The notes beneath the pieces are model-generated. The model worked only from the letters and a program-made list of their open reading frames with translations, ran no database searches and was not told the origin of the DNA. From the NCBI GenBank assembly GCA_051251915.1, contig JBPOGF010000004.1, positions 43,188 to 107,187 on the forward strand: a stretch of 64,000 bases of DNA, in the 5' to 3' direction. Position numbers and translations under genes: made by a program. Below are positions 12,518 to 23,392 of the stretch, in pieces. Source of the DNA: Akkermansiaceae bacterium (GTDB lineage: Bacteria; Verrucomicrobiota; Verrucomicrobiia; Verrucomicrobiales; Akkermansiaceae). Each line of letters opens with the position of its first letter. The first letter of the stretch is position 1.

Positions 12518-13846
12518 TTACTGTTGGAGTAATTTTCCTAGATCGGTAGAAGGGTGAAATACGAAGGTATTTCCGTCTTTTTCTTTGGTCAGTAAACCTG
12601 CAGATGCTAATTTTAGTAAATCAGTTCTAGCTGTTTGGTTAGTGATACCATGGCTAGTTTGGTGTGATGCTATGGTGTAAAGTGCATGGCTATTTCTAAC
12701 AGCATGACTTAGAAGCGCTTTCTGTCTGTGATTCCACTTCCTCATCCCTATAAGAGACGTTGATAATTCTAACTGTTGGCGTTGCTTCCTACTGATGTAT
12801 TCGTGTAATGAAGTTACGGATTTATCCAATGTTTCTAGCTGATGGATGATGAAGTAATTTAGATCATTTTCATCAGTTTCGGTGTATAAAAATGCTCTGT
12901 AATACTGGATTGGAGCTTTGAGTAATTCAGATGAAAGCGAGATGTATTCCATCATCCAGTAGCCATGCTTTAGCATACACCAATAAAATAGAGCTCTAGC
13001 GGTTCTTCCATTTCCGTCGTAGAATGGGTGTTCATAAGCTAGCCAAAAATGTAAGATGATAGATCTAATTATAGGGTGTAAGTAACCTTGCATCTCTGGT
13101 GCATTTGCAAAAGCACATAGTTTTTCCATCCTGTCAGGAAGTAGGTCTGCATCTGGAGGAGAGTGCATGATTTCATTAGTTGTTTGATCAACTACTTGGA
13201 TATCCTCGGAAGCAAAGCGATATCTTCCTGAGGCATCTTCTTTAGTCAAAGTGTCTTTGGTCATCAACCGATGAATTTCTAGTATGAGATCTTGCGATAA
13301 TTCTCGATCCTTTAGTTCATGGATTTTCTTCATTGTTAGGAAGTTATTTAGAATCATCTGCTCATCTTTATTCTTTGGCTTAGATTTTCTTCTTAACATT
13401 TCCCCTGCTATTTCTCTAGTTACTGAGGCTCCTTCTAGCTGTGATGATGTTATGGATTCTTCAATAAGTGAGGATATATAGTAACGTTTTGAGTCGATAT
13501 CTACACTATCTGGCTTGTTGTTAGTGCTGAGGGTTCCTCCACATTTCTTATCCAGTTGATGAATAAGTTCAAACATGTGCTGTGTCAGGTAGAAGACAAA
13601 AGGATTATCGTTAGAGTCTTTAAACGGGAGAAGTTGGTAACGACTATTCCTGTGAAACTTAAGAACTGTCCACCAGTCTTCGGAAGACCAATTTTTAGGT
13701 CTATTACGGTATCTTAGTTTATCCCAATGTAGATATTTTTGCGAATCAGGAAGAGCATCAATGGGGGTATTGATATCAGAGCCAAGTTTATTCAGCGTGT
13801 TGGCTAAGAGAGTCTTCCAGTCAGGTGGTGTTTTTGGGTATTTCAT
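12518..13846 (-). CDS. Fic-family protein with internal inhibitory motif and C-terminal wHTH
   Basis: Canonical HPFYDGNGRTAR; upstream SSQLEG matches the (S/T)xxxE(G/N) inhibitory motif; C-terminal GITNQTARTDLLKLASAGLL is HTH-like. Visibly AT-richer than its neighbours. Confidence 0.92.
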   Translation of the reverse strand: MKYPKTPPDWKTLLANTLNKLGSDINTPIDALPDSQKYLHWDKLRYRNRPKNWSSEDWWTVLKFHRNSRYQLLPFKDSNDNPFVFYLTQHMFELIHQLDKKCGGTLSTNNKPDSVDIDSKRYYISSLIEESITSSQLEGASVTREIAGEMLRRKSKPKNKDEQMILNNFLTMKKIHELKDRELSQDLILEIHRLMTKDTLTKEDASGRYRFASEDIQVVDQTTNEIMHSPPDADLLPDRMEKLCAFANAPEMQGYLHPIIRSIILHFWLAYEHPFYDGNGRTARALFYWCMLKHGYWMMEYISLSSELLKAPIQYYRAFLYTETDENDLNYFIIHQLETLDKSVTSLHEYISRKQRQQLELSTSLIGMRKWNHRQKALLSHAVRNSHALYTIASHQTSHGITNQTARTDLLKLASAGLLTKEKDGNTFVFHPSTDLGKLLQQ

Positions 13847-14041: not shown

Positions 14042-16315
14042 CTAAACTATTTGTAACTCGTAGTCTTTGGTGAGTTGTAGGTGGAGGGTGGTGTCTTTTA
14101 GGGTGGGGTGGGTTACTAGGTGTTGGGAGAGTGAGGTGGTGATGAAGTGGTCTATCTTGCGCTGTAGTGGACGTGCTCCGTATTTGGGGTCGAAGCCTTC
14201 TTTTGCGAGGTGGGTGATGAGGTCTTGGCTGTAGGTGAGGCTGATGTTGCGGTCACGGAGTCCTTCGCGTTGGTTGAGTTCTGTTAGTTCTTTTCTCGCT
14301 ATTTTCTCTATGAGTGGTTGGTCTAGTGCGTTGAAGTAGATGACTTGGTCTAGACGATTGAAGAATTCTGGGCGGAAGAATTTTTTGACTACTGATGTGT
14401 CAACGCTGGTAGATGGGCTATTGGCTTCATTGCCAAATCCGATGTTGTTAGCGAGACCAGCACCTAGGTTAGAGGTCATGATGATGATGGTGCTGTTGAA
14501 GTAGGTGCGGCGTCCGAAGGAGTCTGTTAGGCGCCCTTCGTCGAAGACATTGAGTAGGATGTCGAATACTTCATCGGCAGCTTTTTCAACTTCGTCTAGT
14601 AGTAGTATGGTGAATGGATTTGAGCGGATCTTGCGGATCATTTCTGATGGCTTGCCGCGTAGCTGGGGGTGACCTAGTAGTCTGGTGGCTGCATCGTAGC
14701 CGGCGTATTCGCTCATGTCTAAGCGGATCAAGCGGTCTTTTTCTACTTTTCCTGAGAAGAGCAGATTTCCGAGTGCTCGGACGATAGCTGTCTTTCCTAC
14801 GCCAGTAGGTCCGCAGCAGAGGAAGACACCTAGTGGGCGAGATGGATCATTCATGCCAGCTTTGAAGCGTGAGAGCATGTTGGAGATGACGTTGACTACG
14901 GGTTCTTGACCTAGGACTTGGTTGTTGAGTGTTTGGCGGATTTCTGAGGGCGCTAGGCTTAGCTCGTCATTGAGAAATTCTAGCGGGAGTCCAGTATGCT
15001 TGCTAAAGGTGAGCCAGACTAGATCTGTATCTACTGTGGAGCTGTTAGAGCGCTGGGATTCTTCTTTGAGCCCATCCATGAAATGCATGACCTTGCCGGG
15101 GAAGGAGTCATAGGGTTGGAAGCGTTTAAAGAGTTGGTGGACTATGTCTAGGGCTTCTGGGGCGAAGCTGACTTTGTCTTGCTGGAGTGCTGCGTCTGCG
15201 TAGCGTGCTAGGATTCTTTTGGTTTGTTCTTCAGTGAAGGTTGGGAGTTGGAGCACTTGGAATTGATCGATGAGTCCGGGGAGTAGTCGGTCACAGGCTT
15301 CTAGTTCTTCTGGTGTGGCTTCTACTACAATGCGGAGTTCTTGATTCTGAATGTAGGGGAGCATGAAGGCAGCAATACTGGACTCTGCTGTTTGGCCTCC
15401 TAGTTTGAGCAGCTCTTGGAGGTTTTCTATGAATAGGGTTCCTTGGAAGTTTGCGAGGTCTGCTACGGCATACTCGAAACGTTCTTCCCACTGACCTAGG
15501 TAGCGCATTCCTGAGATGATGCGTCCTGCGTTGGTGGTCCAGAAGAGTTGTTTTTTCTTGCTGTGTTTACTTTTATTCTTCTGTTGTTTGAGCTCTGCAC
15601 GTCTTGCGGCTTCTGTCAAAAGTGATGTTTTTCCACTTCCTGTATTTCCTACGAGAAGGATGCTGTTAGATTCTGCTGAGAGCATGGTTTCTAGCCAGTG
15701 CATTTCATGGTCTCGTTCCCAGGTTCGCTTGGTTTTCTGTGATGTGGTTTTGCTGATGTGGTCGGCAAATTGAGCGAGGCTTTTGACGCAGTCTGTGTCT
15801 TCGTAATGTGAGGTGGATAGTTCTTTGAAGGTGGTGATTATTTCATGGAGTTCAATATGGCTGGGTGGGAGATAGCGGGAGAGTTCTTGGGGGCTTAGAC
15901 CTTGGGCGAAGGATCTTACGTAATGGGTAGCGAGTTCTTCAAATCCTTTTTCATCGTGGTATTCGAAGCTGAGATCCATAGTGGGGATGAAGGCGGTGGG
16001 GAGTCCGCTGTCACGCTCTCCTAGTATGCAGGGGAGGTTGAGCAGGGTGGAGTCTTTGCTAGCATAGGTGCGGCGGTTTTCTTGGTATTCCGCGATGACT
16101 TTTACTTTTAGCTGGGTGAGTCTAGGCTTGAGGAAGTCGCCTTCTGGTAAGAAGTCATTTTTATGGGCGTATTGGAGGTAATCTTTGATTTGCTGTAATG
16201 CTTGTTTCCGTGATTTAGAAACAGCAATTACCTCAGAGTCATCTAGCAGGCATGCGGTGTGCAAGCCATTGTGATCTTGCCAAATAGCGGCTTGGTGTCG
16301 TTCTACTTTAGCCAT
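14042..16315 (-). CDS. ClpA/B-like double AAA+ ATPase (paralogue 3, no C-terminal extension)
   Basis: D1 GNTGSGKT; D2 GPTGVGKT, RLDMSEY, LLLDEVEKA, FRPEFFNRLD, YGARPLQR; NNIGF loop. Confidence 0.9.
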   Translation of the reverse strand: MAKVERHQAAIWQDHNGLHTACLLDDSEVIAVSKSRKQALQQIKDYLQYAHKNDFLPEGDFLKPRLTQLKVKVIAEYQENRRTYASKDSTLLNLPCILGERDSGLPTAFIPTMDLSFEYHDEKGFEELATHYVRSFAQGLSPQELSRYLPPSHIELHEIITTFKELSTSHYEDTDCVKSLAQFADHISKTTSQKTKRTWERDHEMHWLETMLSAESNSILLVGNTGSGKTSLLTEAARRAELKQQKNKSKHSKKKQLFWTTNAGRIISGMRYLGQWEERFEYAVADLANFQGTLFIENLQELLKLGGQTAESSIAAFMLPYIQNQELRIVVEATPEELEACDRLLPGLIDQFQVLQLPTFTEEQTKRILARYADAALQQDKVSFAPEALDIVHQLFKRFQPYDSFPGKVMHFMDGLKEESQRSNSSTVDTDLVWLTFSKHTGLPLEFLNDELSLAPSEIRQTLNNQVLGQEPVVNVISNMLSRFKAGMNDPSRPLGVFLCCGPTGVGKTAIVRALGNLLFSGKVEKDRLIRLDMSEYAGYDAATRLLGHPQLRGKPSEMIRKIRSNPFTILLLDEVEKAADEVFDILLNVFDEGRLTDSFGRRTYFNSTIIIMTSNLGAGLANNIGFGNEANSPSTSVDTSVVKKFFRPEFFNRLDQVIYFNALDQPLIEKIARKELTELNQREGLRDRNISLTYSQDLITHLAKEGFDPKYGARPLQRKIDHFITTSLSQHLVTHPTLKDTTLHLQLTKDYELQIV

Positions 16316-19300
16316 GGTTCGGAAGAAGAAGGTTTGAGATTTCAGTGAGTTCTGGAGCTGTGGGGAGGAGCGGGGTGATGAGGCTCCATAGATTGTAGTT
16401 TCTGTCTGTGATGAGTCCTGTGCGAAGATCTAGGGTGTGGCTGAAAGTTTGCAGGCGATGGATGAATTCACTACGATGTTGCTCAGTGCTTTCTTGGAAT
16501 TGGTAGATGTGCTGTGCTGCCTTTAATTGAATACCGACTAGGTATTTCATGAGTTTTTGCCCAGCGAGTGCTTCGAATTGATAGTGATTGGTTTTCTTTT
16601 TATCGGTCCATTTTCCATCAGGGAAGCTAGTTGTATAGGTTTCTTGATTCCATGTAGGTCCATCTAGAGCGAGGATGACAGTTTCTATATTCAGGTTCTT
16701 TTGTTCTAACAGAAAGTGGATATGGTTGATTTTGTTGATGAGGTTTTCAGCGGAATAGGCGAGGTAGGTTTGGATTTCGCCAGTCTCGGCTAGTTCGTTG
16801 ATCCATTGGCTTGGATTGCTCATCTGGCTGATTTTCTCTAGTGCATTACTTTGCGTTTCTGGGCTGATGCGGACTCTGGTGGAACGGGTTCCAAACCTTG
16901 GTGGGATATCAGTTTTGAAACGCGGGTTGAGCGCTATTTCGTGTTGTGATTGGAGTCTTTGCTGAAGAGTTTTTAGGGAGTTAATTTCTTCAGCTAGCTC
17001 GTAGTAGGGGAGCTTGGATTTGAAGTCGCCGTCTTGTTCACCTAGTAGCTGGAGTCTTTCTTCAGCGCGGTCCATAAAGTCATCACTGCATTCTAAGAGA
17101 GTGAGAGCGTGGTCAGGAGAAATGTCCGAGAAGCCAATGTATTCACGCGTTCTCGCGGTGAATGTCTGGGCTGTGATCTTAGGTGCATTGTTCTGGTCTA
17201 GGCTGACGGTGAGGGTGCTCAAGGCGCTGGGTTTGAACTTCATGAGTGCGTCAGCTAGTGGCTGGACTAGGTAGTTTTCTACTGCTCGGCGGAGTGTTCT
17301 AGCTCCGTATTCTGGGTCGAATCCGTGATCAGTGAGCATTTCATAGACTGGAGGCTCTATCTCTAGTGTGAGCTTGCGCTGGGTGACGCCAAATCGCTTG
17401 AGTGCTTTCTGTGCTAGCCGCTGGACTAGTCCCTGGATGTGGTTGCGGTCTAGGCGGTGGAAGGGGACGATGCGGTCTAGGCGATTGAAAAACTCTGGAC
17501 GGAAAAATTTCTCAGCTGCTTGAGTGTAGATGTGGTCTTGCTGTTCTTGGTTTTGCTCGGAGCTAAAGCCCATGTGGCTAGCGTTTGCTGCTGATCCTAG
17601 GTTGGAGGTGAGAATGATGAGGGTGTTACTAAAGTCTGCAGTCTGTCCAGCAGCGTCTGTTAGGCGAGCCTCGCCTAGGACTTGGAGGAGGAGGTCGAAG
17701 ACGCTGGGGTGGGCTTTTTCTATCTCATCAAATAGGACGACGGTGTATGGCTGACGTTTGATGGCGGAGGTGAGTATACCGTGAGGGCGTGCCTCAGTGC
17801 CTATGAGACGAGCGGCGGCGTCTGCTCCGACGTATTCGTTCATGTCGATCCGGAGTAGACGTTCTTCTGTCTCGAAAACGTAGCTGGCTAGAGCTTTGGC
17901 GCATTCGGTTTTCCCTACGCCTGTGGGTCCTAGAAAGAGTAGGCTAGCGAGTGGGCGACTGGGGTCATTGAGCTGGCTCTTGGTGAGGGTGATGGCATTC
18001 ACCATGGCATCGATAGCGGCTTGTTGTCCTACGATGTGCTGATTGAAATAGAGTATGGGCGTGTCATCTGGGTTGTTGTTAGTTTCGATCATTCGCCATG
18101 AGATTCCTGATTTGGCTTTGAAGTGATCTACTGCATTTTTTTCGGTGATTTCTGTGCTCTGGGAAGCGAGCTGCATGAGTGCATCTGCTCCTTTTCCGGG
18201 GAATGAGCGTGAGCGGACGTAGCGCTGCTGGAGTTGCATGATCTTGGGGATGACGCCGGGGGCGAAGGTGCAGTTTTTCTCAGTCTCTAGCATTTGCATC
18301 ACTCGGATGAGGATGCGCTGGGTCTCATCATCACTAGGTTCACGAATGGGGATGATCTGGAAATAATCGGTGAATCCACGGTCGATCTCTTTGAGCTTTC
18401 TCCAGGCTTCTGGAGTGGCTTCGGCGATGATGCGTGGTGGATTTTTTTCGAGTTGAGCCTTGAGCAGGTTTCCGATGCTAAGGTCACTACTGCTAGATTT
18501 TCCAGCCTGGAAGAGTCCTAGAAGGTCATCGAAGTAGGCTACGTGGTTTTTCTTAGTAATGTGGGTAATGATGGCTAGAAAACGTTCTTCCCACTGACCT
18601 ACATAAGACATCCCTGAGACCATGCGTTGAGGATTGAGCAGCCAGAACTGCTCGTCTAGCTTGTGGCGCTCGTCGTGTCGCTTGGCGATGAGTTCATGAA
18701 TGATGGCGGTCTTGCCTACTTGGCTGGGACCGATGAGGACTACGGGGCGGAGGAGCTGTGTCTGATCAAAGAGTGATGCTATTTCACCGACTAGGGTCTC
18801 TCGCATGACAGCACGTTTGATTTGCTGGGGATAGAGGCGGTTGATGCAGCGTCCTATCCGTTCTAGCTCGGAGGCGCCGTTAAGTTTCTCAGTGCTACCT
18901 AGGCTGGCGAAAAACTGGGAGCCTTGGTTAGGGTCAAGCTTCTGCTGGATGTTGTTTTCAATGTCGATGTAGCTGAGGTTGTAGTTCTGAGCATTGGCTA
19001 TTTCTTCGGGCTGAGCTTTTCCTTCTTCGCGTTCTTTCTTGCGATAGTATTTAGTAAGTATGGTGGTAGCTCGTTCTTGGATCTGGTCACCACGAAGGAG
19101 CTCGAAACTGACTTCTGGTTGCTTGGGGCAGTAGGCTATACGTCTTTCTAGTGCGGAGAAAACCACGAAGAAAAACTTACCTCTGAAGGTTTGTTTCTTA
19201 AGTCGGAGTTCTAGCTTTAGCAGATGCCGGCTTAGCTCTGGGCTGTAGGAGAGAGTGGTGAGCTCGCTGTGGTTTTGCTTTTTTACTAGAGCTGCAATGT

Positions 19301-19460
19301 AGCCGCGGAGGTTCTGAGTAAGACGCTCTGTGGCGCGGTCTTCACGGAGGTCACTGGCGGTGATCTCTTGATTGAAAATAGGGGAGACTGAATAGTAGGG
19401 ATCTGCGTCACCGTCTATGATTTTCTCTATTAGGATGGGTATGGAAAGTTGAGTCAGCAT
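16308..19460 (-). CDS. ClpA/B-like double AAA+ ATPase (paralogue 2, C-terminal extension of about 290 aa)
   Basis: D1 GPSQVGKT; D2 GPTGVGKT, RIDMNEY, VLFDEIEKAH, FRPEFFNRLD, YGARTLRR; HMGF loop; C-terminal TLDLRTG. Confidence 0.9.
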   Translation of the reverse strand: MLTQLSIPILIEKIIDGDADPYYSVSPIFNQEITASDLREDRATERLTQNLRGYIAALVKKQNHSELTTLSYSPELSRHLLKLELRLKKQTFRGKFFFVVFSALERRIAYCPKQPEVSFELLRGDQIQERATTILTKYYRKKEREEGKAQPEEIANAQNYNLSYIDIENNIQQKLDPNQGSQFFASLGSTEKLNGASELERIGRCINRLYPQQIKRAVMRETLVGEIASLFDQTQLLRPVVLIGPSQVGKTAIIHELIAKRHDERHKLDEQFWLLNPQRMVSGMSYVGQWEERFLAIITHITKKNHVAYFDDLLGLFQAGKSSSSDLSIGNLLKAQLEKNPPRIIAEATPEAWRKLKEIDRGFTDYFQIIPIREPSDDETQRILIRVMQMLETEKNCTFAPGVIPKIMQLQQRYVRSRSFPGKGADALMQLASQSTEITEKNAVDHFKAKSGISWRMIETNNNPDDTPILYFNQHIVGQQAAIDAMVNAITLTKSQLNDPSRPLASLLFLGPTGVGKTECAKALASYVFETEERLLRIDMNEYVGADAAARLIGTEARPHGILTSAIKRQPYTVVLFDEIEKAHPSVFDLLLQVLGEARLTDAAGQTADFSNTLIILTSNLGSAANASHMGFSSEQNQEQQDHIYTQAAEKFFRPEFFNRLDRIVPFHRLDRNHIQGLVQRLAQKALKRFGVTQRKLTLEIEPPVYEMLTDHGFDPEYGARTLRRAVENYLVQPLADALMKFKPSALSTLTVSLDQNNAPKITAQTFTARTREYIGFSDISPDHALTLLECSDDFMDRAEERLQLLGEQDGDFKSKLPYYELAEEINSLKTLQQRLQSQHEIALNPRFKTDIPPRFGTRSTRVRISPETQSNALEKISQMSNPSQWINELAETGEIQTYLAYSAENLINKINHIHFLLEQKNLNIETVILALDGPTWNQETYTTSFPDGKWTDKKKTNHYQFEALAGQKLMKYLVGIQLKAAQHIYQFQESTEQHRSEFIHRLQTFSHTLDLRTGLITDRNYNLWSLITPLLPTAPELTEISNLLLPNHG

Positions 19461-19463
19461 CGG

Positions 19464-22400
19464 TTAATCGAGCATGTTGTTAGTTTCCTTAAGCAGTGTG
19501 TCGTTGAGGAGTTTATCCAGTGTGGATATGGAGAAGGGGAGGATTCCTTTTTCTTCTAACCATGTATCACGGTAGCTGCCCTCGAAGAAAAATTCTCTAC
19601 GAACGGCTATTTTCTTAAGATCTAGTTTAGCCTCCAGTTCTTCTACAGGAATGCGGAATTTCTTGAGCGAGCCACTGTGGGTGCTGATGTAGCAACGTTG
19701 TTTGTCTTTGTCTTCTGTATGGTAAACGTGGAGTCCGTGTTCATTGCGAAGTAGGAGTTCTGCTTCTGTGTGCTGGACGTGGAGAGCTATTCCTTTGAGG
19801 GGTTTGAGCTTTCGAGTGCCGACTTTATCACTGAGCATTTCTGCAAATTCTTCTAGGCTTACAATTTCCGGGGTGATGAATTCATGTTCGTTGCCATCTT
19901 CATCTAGGTCTTTTACTTTGAGTTCTTTGGTAGGTTTTCTGTAGATGAGTCCTAGCTTACATTTGAAATTTTTACCTGTTAGCAGTGTGGTGTATGTTTG
20001 CTGTAACTTGGTCATCCACTCGAGTGAATCTACTTGCATGTAGAGGATGATTTCATCATCGAGATTGGAATAGACACTGTAGATCTCTGTGATGAGACGG
20101 AGTGCGTCATGTCTGGTAAATGGGCTGTGTTTCTGCTGGGCGTCCAGATCAGAGTTTTGGAAGGATTTTACGAGTAAGTCTTCTTCCCATTGGGTTGTTT
20201 TAGTGAGGGCTTGAGTTACTTCGTTGAGGCTTGTGGTGAGTGATTCCTTGCGAGGGGTGTTCTCTGGATCAAATTCTGTGAAGACGCTGTCTAGTGATTG
20301 CTTCCTACGCTTTTGTTGTTTGAGCTTTTTAGCCTTTAGTTGATTCATCCTGCGTTCGAGTCTAGCTAGCTCGCTTTTTAGCTCACGTAGCATGGAGCTG
20401 TGGTTTAGCTTGTAGATGAGACGTCTTACTTTAGCGGCTTCGTTTAGTTGTGGATAGCTGTAGGTTTTTTTACTGGAGTGGTGAGGTTCGTATGAGACTA
20501 GCGCTTGAGCTTGGTTCTGTTCATCAGCTGAGACGTTGATGGTGCCATTTTGCTTGGTGTTGTTGATGATGAATTCAGCAACGGGGAGAAGAATGTGTGT
20601 CTCGATAGCTCGCTTGAGTGGACGTGCGCCGTAGCGGGGGTCGTGGCTGTTACGGATGACTTGGTCTAGATATTCAGGGTCTACTTGGATGTCTAGACCT
20701 TGGTGGTGGAGACCATCTCGCTTGGATGCTAGCTGGAGCTCGCGCTGGGCTATTTTTCTAACGGAATCTAGGCTGAGAGCCTGGAAGGGGACGATGCGGT
20801 CGATGCGATTGAAGAACTCTGGGCGGACGCGTTCTTTGACAGCATCAATGAAGTGTTGCTCAGCGAGGACTGAGTCTTCGAGATCATTGGCTAGGAATCC
20901 CATGTTAGAATTTCCAAAGGTGCTGGCTCCTAGGTTGGAGGTCATGATGATGACGGCATTGCTGAAGTCTGCTAAGCGTCCTGCTCCATCAGTCAGACGA
21001 CCTTCGCCTAGGACTTGGAGGAAGAGGTCATAGACTTCTGGTGCTGCTTTCTCAAATTCATCTAGGAGGATGACGGAGAAGGGTTGGTCACGGACGGTGG
21101 CGGTGAGGATGCCTTCGCCCTGGGAAAAGCTATCGCTCACTAGGCGCTGGGCTGAGTGTGGTGAGCTGTATTCGCTCATGTCGAAACGGACAATGCGCTC
21201 CTTTGACCCGTAGAGGAATTCTGCTAGGGACTTGGCTAGTTCGGTTTTGCCTACTCCAGTAGGTCCTATGAACATGAATGTAGCGAGGGGTTTCTTGGGT
21301 CTCGTGAGTCTGGTTTTGACCGTAGCGAGCATCTTGGTGACTACTTCTATGCCGGCGTCTTGAGCCATCACTCGTTGGGTAAACCATTCAGTGATTTCGG
21401 AGGGGGTGAAAATGATATCATCATCCAGAATGAGTTTGGGGAGACCGGTCTCCTTGGAGAAAACTTCTACGATGTCAGAGCGCGATATTTTCCTGTCGGA
21501 ATGTTGTTTGATGAGGCTTTCTAAGAATTGGCAGGGCTTCCCGGGGTAGGCTGAGTAGCTCATGTAGCGGCGGTGAAGCGCGTCAATGTTGTGAATCAGG
21601 TCATGCTGTTCCTCTGAGCTGTGTTTGCTGTTAGAGGCATCTGTTAGATATTGATTTCCTACTTTAAGCAGGATGTTTAGAGCTTGGTCAGGTGTTGGCT
21701 CAGCGATGGTGACGCGGTTAAATGCATCGAGAATTTTTGGGTCGTGAGCTTCCAGTGCGCTGAGTTGTTCCTCAGTGCATTCAGCAATTACGATGAGGTC
21801 TCCACGCATCATGTAGGGGCGGAGGTAGCTGGCGATGCTTTCTGAACTGCTGGAGGATTGACCTACTTGCATGAGCTCGAAGAGATTGCCAATGAAGAGG
21901 ATACTTTTCTCTTCTGCGAGTTCTGAGACCATGTCGTCGCAACGTTTCTGCCACATGCCGAATCCTGTTTGTCCCGCTACGATTTGGGATCCGCTAGATT
22001 TCCAGAGTTTAGGAAGGTGTTTTGATTCTGAACGTAGCATTTCTTCTACGATAGCAGTTTTTCCTACTCCGCTAGGTCCTACGAGAAGTGCGCTGAAGGG
22101 ATTTTTTCCTGTGAGGCATTCTAGTAGGTTTGTGACCTCAGTGGTGCGCTCATAAGCTTGGCGCATATCACCAGTATTCATTTGGCAGGCGACTTCTTTT
22201 AGTATAGTTTTCTGATCTGTTTGATCATCGTAGTTCACCTTGTAGTATTCTAGAGCTGTGTAAGGTCTGGGCTTCCAGGGGGTGAGTTCTACTTCTAGAT
22301 CATCTGCTTTTGTGCGCTGGATGAGGGCCATTTCTAGGAGTGACTTGGAGATAGCTCGGCGTTTTACAGCGAAGAGAATTTCCGATTCTATTTTCTCTAA

Positions 22401-22796
22401 CAGCTTGTCATGATTCTGGATGATGACCTCGATCTTTAGAGCGGGGATGTAGACGATGATGTCATTGTTCTCTTGTTCCCATTGAAGATAGGGAAGGTGG
22501 AGAGTGACTGGCTTCTTGAAGCCAATCTGAGCAGATTTAGCAGGTTCGACGACGACGTCGATCGATTTAATTTTGTATTCTGTAGGGACAGATCGCTCGT
22601 GGAAAACTTGGTTGTTTTTCTTTTTAAGCAGCTCGGCAGCAAGTGATTTGAGCTGCTTCTGGACCTTATCAGTTTTGTGACCAAAGGTGCTGAGCTCTGG
22701 GTAGAATAGTAATTCTGACAGCTCTTGGTTTACTCCATTGATAGAACTCTCCAAGGGCTGCTTGATGGACAACACTTCTAGATGGAGATCCTGCAT
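19464..22796 (-). CDS. ClpA/B-like double AAA+ ATPase (paralogue 1) with release-factor-like C-terminal region
   Basis: D1 GPSGVGKT; D2 GPTGVGKT, RFDMSEY, ILLDEFEKA, RPEFFNRID, YGARPLKR; NMGF loop. C-terminal EWMTKLQQTY and GIALHV..AELLLRNEHGLH resemble the PCRF domain. Confidence 0.9.
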   Translation of the reverse strand: MQDLHLEVLSIKQPLESSINGVNQELSELLFYPELSTFGHKTDKVQKQLKSLAAELLKKKNNQVFHERSVPTEYKIKSIDVVVEPAKSAQIGFKKPVTLHLPYLQWEQENNDIIVYIPALKIEVIIQNHDKLLEKIESEILFAVKRRAISKSLLEMALIQRTKADDLEVELTPWKPRPYTALEYYKVNYDDQTDQKTILKEVACQMNTGDMRQAYERTTEVTNLLECLTGKNPFSALLVGPSGVGKTAIVEEMLRSESKHLPKLWKSSGSQIVAGQTGFGMWQKRCDDMVSELAEEKSILFIGNLFELMQVGQSSSSSESIASYLRPYMMRGDLIVIAECTEEQLSALEAHDPKILDAFNRVTIAEPTPDQALNILLKVGNQYLTDASNSKHSSEEQHDLIHNIDALHRRYMSYSAYPGKPCQFLESLIKQHSDRKISRSDIVEVFSKETGLPKLILDDDIIFTPSEITEWFTQRVMAQDAGIEVVTKMLATVKTRLTRPKKPLATFMFIGPTGVGKTELAKSLAEFLYGSKERIVRFDMSEYSSPHSAQRLVSDSFSQGEGILTATVRDQPFSVILLDEFEKAAPEVYDLFLQVLGEGRLTDGAGRLADFSNAVIIMTSNLGASTFGNSNMGFLANDLEDSVLAEQHFIDAVKERVRPEFFNRIDRIVPFQALSLDSVRKIAQRELQLASKRDGLHHQGLDIQVDPEYLDQVIRNSHDPRYGARPLKRAIETHILLPVAEFIINNTKQNGTINVSADEQNQAQALVSYEPHHSSKKTYSYPQLNEAAKVRRLIYKLNHSSMLRELKSELARLERRMNQLKAKKLKQQKRRKQSLDSVFTEFDPENTPRKESLTTSLNEVTQALTKTTQWEEDLLVKSFQNSDLDAQQKHSPFTRHDALRLITEIYSVYSNLDDEIILYMQVDSLEWMTKLQQTYTTLLTGKNFKCKLGLIYRKPTKELKVKDLDEDGNEHEFITPEIVSLEEFAEMLSDKVGTRKLKPLKGIALHVQHTEAELLLRNEHGLHVYHTEDKDKQRCYISTHSGSLKKFRIPVEELEAKLDLKKIAVRREFFFEGSYRDTWLEEKGILPFSISTLDKLLNDTLLKETNNMLD

Positions 22797-22822: not shown

Positions 22823-23392
22823 CTATAGCAAGTCAACGTTGTTGTAGATGGTGCTGCTGGTGAGTGTGGAGTCAGTGCAGCTTAGGGCAGTTTCGAAATC
22901 GTCGCCTGTTAGGAATTCAGGTTCCCAGTTATTCTCTCTTCTTACTATGATGACTTCTTTACGATCTTGAGCGACGAGGATGTATTCCTGTAGGGATGGG
23001 ATACTGGTGTAAGCTAGGAACTTTTCGTTGCGGTCGATGCGCTCGGTGGAGTCAGAAAGAACTTCGAATATTGTAGTGGGCTTTTCTAGGTATAGGGGAT
23101 GATCTCCAGCTTTATCGCAGCTGACTACAACGTCAGGATAGTAGTAACTTTCATTCGAGAGAGTTTTAACCTGAACTTTGACATCATTGATGAATGGGCG
23201 ACAGGGTGATCCTGACAAAGCTTGATTGAGGGATGAAGCAATGTTTAGCGAGATGGTATTATGATTCAGAGTGCCTCCTGACATGGCATAAACGACGCCG
23301 TCTATGTACTCATGTCTAACCTCTGAAACAATTTCTCCCTCCAGATATTCTTCAGGTGTGATGAGAGAGTTTATTTTCAGAGTGGAGCTCAT
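22823..23392 (-). CDS. Uma2 (DUF820) family PD-(D/E)xK endonuclease
   Basis: EEYLEGE..SEVRHEYIDGVVYAMSGGT..H, YYPDVVVSC, IFEVLSDST..IDR.EK, LQEYILVAQD. Confidence 0.93.
   Translation of the reverse strand: MSSTLKINSLITPEEYLEGEIVSEVRHEYIDGVVYAMSGGTLNHNTISLNIASSLNQALSGSPCRPFINDVKVQVKTLSNESYYYPDVVVSCDKAGDHPLYLEKPTTIFEVLSDSTERIDRNEKFLAYTSIPSLQEYILVAQDRKEVIIVRRENNWEPEFLTGDDFETALSCTDSTLTSSTIYNNVDLL

Follow-up and report, generated by a model that had tools for sequence, protein, structure and literature searches.

A three-gene operon of Clp/Hsp100-like proteins

The DNA analyzed here is a 64,000-nucleotide (nt) window of contig JBPOGF010000004.1 from an Akkermansiaceae bacterium (GCA_051251915.1), and coordinates are positions in that window unless another locus is named. 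It contains three Clp/Hsp100-like genes, referred to as paralogues 1, 2 and 3 (P1, P2 and P3), which share one strand with P1 first, a 3 nt gap between P1 and P2, and an 8 nt overlap of P2 and P3 (Table 1); the functional unit is this three-gene operon. Our main subject is the long C-terminal extension of P1, for which an earlier note on this DNA had pointed to a likeness to class I release factors (RFs).

Each of the three proteins has Pfam matches to AAA_2 and ClpB_D2-small together with a second, weaker AAA module; in P1 the AAA_2 and ClpB_D2-small matches have expect values (E) of 4.6e-44 and 1.7e-14 respectively, and two Walker A motifs are present. Because P1, P2 and P3 score 220–360 bits against the NCBIfam models for ClpA, ClpB, ClpV, ClpG and ClpK, far under equivalog cut-offs of 885–1900 bits, they are classified by sequence as Clp/Hsp100-like proteins outside every named subfamily. 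No transmembrane segment is predicted in P1, P2 or P3. The precomputed Pfam annotation of P1-type proteins, which are about 1100 amino acids (aa) long, consists of AAA-type domains only, and public sources hold no name for them.

Relationship of the P1 C-terminal region to release factor 2

The earlier note had quoted three strings near the end of P1, DDEIILYMQVDSLEWMTKLQQTY (residues 911–935), LKGIALHVQHTEAELLLRNEHGLH (residues 999–1023) and IAVRREFFFEGSYRDTWL (residues 1064–1081), and had matched them by eye to RF motifs. All three are present, and both HMMER comparison with the PDB and profile–profile alignment with hhalign place them in the proposed order against ..GG.EA..FA..L.RMY, I.G..A...L..E.G.HR and IR(T/S)Y.......D.R of RFs.

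One line of evidence is profile–profile alignment, using an RF1/RF2 reference alignment built from genomes of the window's own order. Eighty full tails aligned with the combined RF1 and RF2 profile over RF columns 6–364 with a probability of 93.8% and E of 1.8e-7. Against RF2 alone the probability was 95.1% (E 3e-8) and against RF1 alone 15%; a reversed-profile control gave 0.4% (E 0.14).

Predicted structures agree with these alignments. An AlphaFold2 (AF2) model of residues 885–1110 has a predicted local distance difference test score (pLDDT) of 92.2 and a predicted template modelling score (pTM) of 0.86, and a larger model of residues 758–1110 has a pLDDT of 91.6 and pTM of 0.85. When compared with the PDB using Foldseek, the top 40 matches of the smaller model and the top 46 of the larger are all RF1, RF2, mtRF1/mtRF1a or PrfH, with a best probability of 1.0, and the best E drops from 8.6e-5 to 3.4e-7 once the RF-domain-1-like region is added. 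By these models, the P1 tail has the three-dimensional fold of RF domains 1, 2 and 4.

Conventional searches approach the same relationship only as more sequences are included. As a single sequence the tail gave just weak SurA_N_3/CEP63 coiled-coil noise against Pfam and the PDB, P1 has no match to Pfam PCRF (PF03462) even at E≤10, and no Pfam RF threshold is reached. A word-indexed search found two homologues of the tail, and a profile of three sequences had no match in the PDB. Scanning 1.8 billion representatives with this 3-sequence profile returned 28 proteins, of which about 21 are true members, being the C-termini of ~1100-aa Clp-like proteins or fragments thereof; since no bona fide RF was among the 28 matches, plain HMMER is unable to bridge the tail family to RFs. 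With a 21-sequence profile, 14 of 15 HMMER matches in the PDB were RF2 (the best 12 at E 0.002–0.004), spanning RF2 residues 140–165 and 170–204 (...ISGDYAYGWLRTETGVHRL). PCRF is also the commonest weak Pfam match among 64 tails, with five members matching below threshold (best E 0.0017). A weak PCRF match in a 982-aa frame of another genome (G037) was dismissed as coiled-coil noise, as only the RF domain-1 helices aligned.

We conclude that the P1 tail is very probably homologous to class I RFs and specifically to RF2, and that the C-terminal ~330 residues of P1 (residues ~782–1110; 19467–20453, minus strand) are a diverged RF2 paralogue comprising domains 1, 2 and 4. The comparison with RF1/RF2 structures and Pfam that the earlier note had proposed gives significant fold and profile–profile matches, with P1 itself remaining below Pfam thresholds.

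Release-factor elements retained and lost

In RFs, the helical domain 1 is directed toward RF3 and the base of the ribosomal stalk, whereas domains 2 and 4 form the 'decoding' superdomain. The segment of P1 that the earlier note had described as a coiled coil preceding the RF-like domain is RF domain 1 itself, as seen by hhalign, the AF2 model and Foldseek, and the span of 19464–20070 given for the RF-like region was therefore too short, the region beginning about 380 nt farther upstream. In the AF2 model of residues 758–1110 the RF-domain-1-like region contains helices H25–41, H44–74, H89–122 and H138–153, which carry the family consensus LRR..Q.L..S....EL.NE.YRL.R and ED..LL..YG. Conservation specific to the family includes E871, which is invariant, and R791, which is nearly so.

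In the domain 2- and 4-like regions, the invariant or nearly invariant residues Y935, E1019/G1021/H1023, R1067 and D1077 coincide with the RF motifs RMY, E.G.HR, IR.Y and D.R. Domain 2 is interrupted by a family-specific insertion of about 45 aa, which forms small beta-hairpins and a helix in place of a short hairpin turn in RFs.

RF domain 3, the GGQ-containing domain of ~100 residues, is absent as one block of ~82 residues, all of it in a single gap of the hhalign alignment, and a junction of sequence KFRIPVEELEAKLDLK lies in its place. That the domain is missing follows from the spacing between the E.G.H and RR.Y motifs, with a family median of 40 aa as opposed to 122 aa in genuine RFs. The absence of GGQ from P1 reported earlier is thus confirmed; among 80 family members the tripeptide occurs in five, which is the chance level. 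The earlier note had also reported no SPF/PxT anticodon motif, and this holds at the expected loop; an SPF tripeptide does exist at residues 891–893 (20118–20126, HSPFTR), in the linker between domains 1 and 2, but it is not kept in homologues and is incidental, not the anticodon motif.

Because domain 3 and all three stop-codon-reading elements are lost, the P1 tail is unable to hydrolyze peptidyl-tRNA, to release peptides or to read stop codons. The view of the tail as a catalytically inactive RF mimic is thereby borne out, and can be extended in that the mimic is also codon-blind, derives from RF2 and keeps domain 1.

A second tail in P2 and a related fusion

P2 also ends in an RF-like tail (Table 1). 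A set of 38 P2 tails aligned by hhalign with RFs at a probability of 73% (E 3e-5) and with the P1 tail at 86.6% (E 4e-6). The P2-tail family consensus retains E.G.H and a DxRTG motif; in P2 of this genome the E.G.H triad is eroded to LVGIQL, and HTLDLRTGL is retained.

A different Clp-like ATPase with a GGQ-less RF2-like tail is encoded by a single gene in another genome of the same order (locus L117, G042:C79, 9320–13207, plus strand). The protein is membrane-anchored, with a transmembrane helix at its N-terminus, MPDLPLLIALLAGLAAGAIAVVAL. Its tail is far less diverged (...EAQEFADRLMRMYQRW...EPEDGLHVLER...VRRYQEQPTPLVRDKVRDYRSGRLDLVMDGYFD) and matches PCRF with 24.8 bits, compared with a gathering score of 24. 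Fusions of Clp and RF sequences thus belong to two separate families of Clp proteins, a soluble one that has three paralogues and a membrane-anchored one that has a single gene.

The AAA+ motor

Searches with the N-terminal ~205 aa of P1, alone and as a set of 57 sequences, gave no PDB match and no consistent Pfam match. This domain is shared by the P1 family, in which an AYVPALGIEV-type motif is conserved and Arg146 is invariant.

The Walker A motif of the first AAA+ module (D1) is intact in all three paralogues, and the hhhhDE form of Walker B is present in none, with ILFIGN in P1 (21900–22080), LFIEN in P3 and YFDD in P2. The G-N at this position in P1 is invariant or nearly so in 11 homologues. 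The lack of the acidic Walker B pair (GN in P1, EN in P3 and DD in P2) suggests that D1 would merely bind ATP, forming a putative non-hydrolyzing ring as in Pex1/Pex6-type heterohexamers.

The second module (D2) of P1 has canonical Walker motifs, and the usual D2 GYVG pore loop is replaced by a shorter segment, RLVSDSFSQGEG. Each paralogue has an xGF tripeptide following TSNLG (NMGF in P1 at ~20860–20900, HMGF in P2 and NIGF in P3), which corresponds in position to the ClpP-docking loop of ClpA and ClpC. The G-F of this candidate loop is kept in 70 of 70 P1 homologues, with a polar preceding residue in 18, and the genome encodes two ClpP genes.

Distribution and conservation

Relatives were collected using the conserved D1 region as query against one genome per species for 185,579 species. 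The scan yielded 177 relatives in at least three phyla, with members in Verrucomicrobiota, Planctomycetota, Acidobacteriota (Blastocatellia, Pyrinomonadaceae), Lentisphaerae and a few metagenome-assembled genomes labelled Clostridia. Every one of the 70 full-length P1 homologues has the tail, with no truncations. Among 80 fetched loci, 27 contain all three genes in the order P1-P2-P3 and 39 at least P1-P2, and many of the remaining contigs are truncated. As an operon, P1-P2-P3 is conserved across the Verrucomicrobiota, the Planctomycetota and the Acidobacteriota. The cultured planctomycete Zavarzinella formosa DSM 19928 has a P1 gene and a P2-like gene, and a complete three-gene operon was not found at that locus. 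The distribution of the tail is patchy, as it occurs in 23 of 201 genomes and 12 of 45 genera of the window's order and in no other sampled genome of the window's own family.

In the closest metagenomic relative (locus L003, 3467–12499) the gene order is P2-P3-P1. P1 is there split into open reading frames (ORFs) of 293 aa and 832 aa with the break directly after the D1 pore loop GQTGFGMW; the break may stem from a frameshift or an assembly error, or the gene may truly be split.

Neighboring genes

The operon is flanked directly by a Fic-domain gene downstream and a 189-aa gene upstream (Table 1). Both were considered as parts of the system and rejected, as neither accompanies the operon in other genomes, and they are probably unrelated neighbors. 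A 425-aa ORF upstream of the operon was read by eye as a putative seryl-tRNA synthetase gene (serS). Flanks of related loci vary between genomes and are housekeeping in kind (DUF2891 with RecJ/RecG, FeoAB with ArgJ, DapD, aminotransferases, a methyltransferase and a radical-SAM enzyme), and neighbor analysis of these loci identified no conserved partner gene. Across the window the guanine–cytosine skew on the plus strand is persistently and strongly positive over nearly all 64 kb, and most long ORFs are on the minus strand.

Table 1. Genes and protein regions of the Clp-like operon and its flanks, in window coordinates.
Feature	Position	Strand	Residues	Description and basis
P1 (paralogue 1)	19464–22796	-		1110 aa; Clp/Hsp100-like double-AAA+ protein with RF2-like C-terminal extension; ORF, Pfam, NCBIfam
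P1 N-terminal domain	22182–22796	-	1–205	Family-specific, no Clp_N; 57-sequence profile
P1 D1 AAA+ module	21432–22181	-	~206–455	Walker A GPSGVGKT intact; Walker B ILFIGNLFEL; pore loop GQTGFGMWQ
P1 D2 AAA+ module and D2-small	20526–21431	-	~456–757	Canonical Walker A GPTGVGKT and Walker B LLDEFEKA
P1 RF-domain-1-like helical region	20067–20453	-	~782–910	hhalign to RF columns 6–110
P1 RF-domain-2-like (PCRF) domain	19656–20066	-	~911–1047	RMY-like Y935; E1019-G1021-H1023 triad
P1 family-specific ~45-aa insertion	19800–19940	-	~953–999	hhalign gap; AF2 secondary structure
P1 junction	19608–19655	-	~1048–1063	~16 residues where RFs carry GGQ domain 3 and switch loop
P1 RF-domain-4-like strands and C-terminal helix	19467–19607	-	~1064–1110	Invariant R1067 (RR.Y/F motif) and D1077
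P2 (paralogue 2)	16308–19460	-		1050 aa; last ~290 aa (16311–17186) are a second, more eroded GGQ-less RF-like tail; hhalign
P3 (paralogue 3)	14042–16315	-		757 aa; terminates just past D2-small, without RF-like tail
Fic-domain protein	12518–13846	-		Directly downstream of P3; NCBIfam Fic match 7e-14
189-aa gene	22823–23392	-		Directly upstream of P1; no family in NCBIfam scan

Possible roles of the tail

The reading we prefer, to which we assign a probability of about 40%, is that the P1 tail acts as a codon-blind module that would direct a probably ClpP-coupled, heteromeric unfoldase to ribosomes or to ribosome-bound RNA. P1, P2 and P3 would probably form one heteromeric hexamer, in which D1 binds ATP without hydrolysis and D2 is the motor, and which probably docks ClpP via the conserved xGF loop. 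The RF2-derived tails would most likely be target-recognition arms that bring the motor, independently of a codon, either to the factor-binding/A-site region of the ribosome or to ribosome-bound RNA. The substrate of the unfoldase would then be ribosome-associated, for example a nascent chain that has stalled, a bound factor or one of the ribosomal proteins, and peptidyl-tRNA hydrolysis would be no part of the action of the complex itself.

This proposal draws on the fact that two separate Clp lineages, across phyla, have kept domains 1, 2 and 4 natively arranged, the most economical reason for which is that the overall RF shape still matters. This shape reaches in RFs from the decoding centre to the stalk base, and its retention points to the ribosome. 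The xGF loop of all three paralogues and the two ClpP genes of the genome would also be in line with this reading.

Several observations weigh against such a role. The RF elements with known contacts to the decoding centre are all deleted or replaced: there is a 5-residue gap at the GxGG(D/E) loop, which forms the tip of helix alpha5 in RFs, the PxT/SPF loop has lost about 8 residues (GLHVYHTEDKDKQRCYIS as compared with GVHRVQRVPxTExQGRIHTS), RIHTS is not retained and the switch loop is replaced. The residues shared with RF motifs (Y935, E1019/G1021/H1023, R1067 and D1077) are best understood as the putative core of the fold. Domain 2/4 is acidic, with a net charge of -5 in P1 and a family median of -4. 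Identity among homologues is 13–25% in the tail and 38–57% in the D1 region, and one would not expect a surface to diverge so fast if it binds the A site, which is invariant. The tail is moreover placed at the D2 exit/ClpP-docking face and not at the substrate-entry face, and neither a genomic association with ribosomes nor a translation gene linked to the operon was found. Finally, PrfB3, which derives from RF2 but has neither SPF nor GGQ, binds the 3' end of an mRNA in land-plant chloroplasts and has no role in termination (PMC5897788). The evidence on docking in the A site for nascent-chain extraction or stalled-ribosome remodelling, as envisaged in the earlier note, may thus be described as mixed.

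A stronger version of ribosome targeting, which we regard as doubtful, is that P1-P2-P3 would be a ClpP-coupled AAA+ protease hard-wired to the ribosome, with two kinds of codon-blind, hydrolase-less RF2 mimics on a hetero-hexameric motor probing vacant or aberrant A sites and the motor extracting and degrading stalled nascent chains or dismantling the ribosome. Bacteria would then have, in one complex, an equivalent of Dom34-ABCE1 or Vms1-Cdc48 that works in parallel to tmRNA, ArfA/ArfB and RqcH.

An alternative explanation, also rather unlikely in our view, is that the tail functions off the ribosome as a structural or regulatory arm of the motor, setting the register of the hetero-hexamer, gating ClpP docking at the D2 face or serving as an adaptor platform in the manner of the middle-domain coiled coils of ClpB and ClpC. 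The tail leaves D2-small beside the presumed ClpP-docking xGF loop, the strongest family-specific conservation is in the domain-1-like helices and not on the former decoding face, the sequence drifts rapidly, and the presence of tails on just two of the three paralogues suits an asymmetric assembly. It leaves unexplained, however, why a complete RF was recruited and maintained in two Clp families and several phyla, when simple coiled coils would suffice for oligomerization.

It is less likely still that the tail binds RNA away from the ribosome in the manner of PrfB3, bringing the unfoldase to one specific mRNA or ribonucleoprotein, where bound proteins would be remodelled or degraded. PrfB3 provides a precedent in binding and protecting the petB 3' untranslated region (PMC5897788), and domain 2/4 of RFs contacts RNA by nature. 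An arginine pair (RR.Y) is conserved at the position of the former switch loop, where most members of the family, though not P1 of this genome, have in addition a PP...RG loop. The acidity of domain 2/4 argues against RNA binding, however, neither RNA genes nor genes of RNA metabolism are linked to the operon in any consistent way, and PrfB3 stands alone without a motor.

We consider it very improbable that the tail is a functionless, decaying relic of an old fusion. Low identity, the eroded triad in P2 of this genome and the lack of a tail on P3 might be read in this way, but the persistence of the tail in every full-length homologue across three phyla, the compact, high-confidence AF2 models and the retained invariant core residues are contrary to decay. 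A chance or compositional resemblance, for example of a coiled coil, which the lack of single-sequence Pfam or PDB matches and the ~10% identity to RFs might suggest, is refuted by the agreement of the PDB profile search, hhalign with its reversed control, both AF2–Foldseek searches and the above-threshold PCRF match in the related fusion, and by the compact beta-rich domain matching RFs on its own, without the helices.

Relationship to known systems

By fold and ancestry the P1 tail is a member of the RF superfamily, yet it is not an RF1 or RF2, as it lies below the Pfam thresholds and is without GGQ, a tripeptide anticodon and domain 3. It resembles RF2 (PrfB; PCRF PF03462 and RF-1 PF00472) in the fold and order of domains 1, 2 and 4 and in the RMY-like tyrosine, E.G.H, (I/V)R.Y/F and aspartate motifs. 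It differs in lacking domain 3 with its GGQ, as well as the SPF loop, the GxGG(D/E) loop and the switch loop, in its ~45-aa insertion and in its fusion to an AAA+ ATPase.

The nearest precedent for an RF2 derivative without these motifs is PrfB3, which was retained despite the loss of both and illustrates that the scaffold can be reused beyond termination; PrfB3 is, however, a stand-alone RNA-binding protein, and the review describes loss of motifs without stating that domain 3 is absent (PMC5897788). PrfH (RFH) and ArfB/ICT1 are likewise specialized RF paralogues that work on abnormal ribosomes without reading stop codons, and PrfH is among the Foldseek matches. They differ in keeping the catalytic GGQ domain, which in ArfB/ICT1 is the only domain present, whereas the P1 tail corresponds to everything except GGQ.

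Among unfoldases, P1 is similar to ClpA and ClpC in having two AAA+ modules, an AAA_2-type D2 with D2-small, and an (I/L/M/V)GF-type tripeptide after TSNLG. Unlike them, it lacks Clp_N, the middle domain and an acidic D1 Walker B, its D2 GYVG is replaced, it has a 350-aa extension, and it is one of three paralogues per operon.

The likeness to Vms1/ANKZF1-Cdc48 and Dom34/Pelota-ABCE1 of eukaryotic and archaeal ribosome rescue is one of concept only, in that an RF-like ribosome probe, inactive in the case of Dom34, cooperates with an ATPase; Cdc48, an AAA+ unfoldase, is recruited by Vms1 (PMC6514570). Those probes have unrelated folds of the eRF1 superfamily, act as separate proteins with their partners and, for Vms1, are catalytically active. 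We found no published description of a Clp–RF fusion in the literature searched, and it is not mentioned in the consulted part of the Burroughs & Aravind survey of release factors. What is new is the combination of a Clp/Hsp100 unfoldase that has a new targeting domain with an RF pseudo-enzyme, both parent kinds being known.

To our knowledge, the RF-derived ribosome-rescue factors of bacteria (ArfB, PrfH, and ArfA with RF2) all keep a GGQ hydrolase. Here it is the remaining part of the factor, a body that faces the decoding centre and the stalk and has no hydrolase, that is fixed to an ATP-driven unfoldase, and this in at least three phyla. If the P1 tail still finds ribosomes, as in the reading we prefer, the operon would add to translation quality control or ribosome turnover in bacteria a new branch that depends on energy; otherwise, a core translation factor would have been reused as a pseudo-enzyme adaptor. 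Either way, proteins of ~1100 aa that are annotated as AAA only gain a testable domain assignment.

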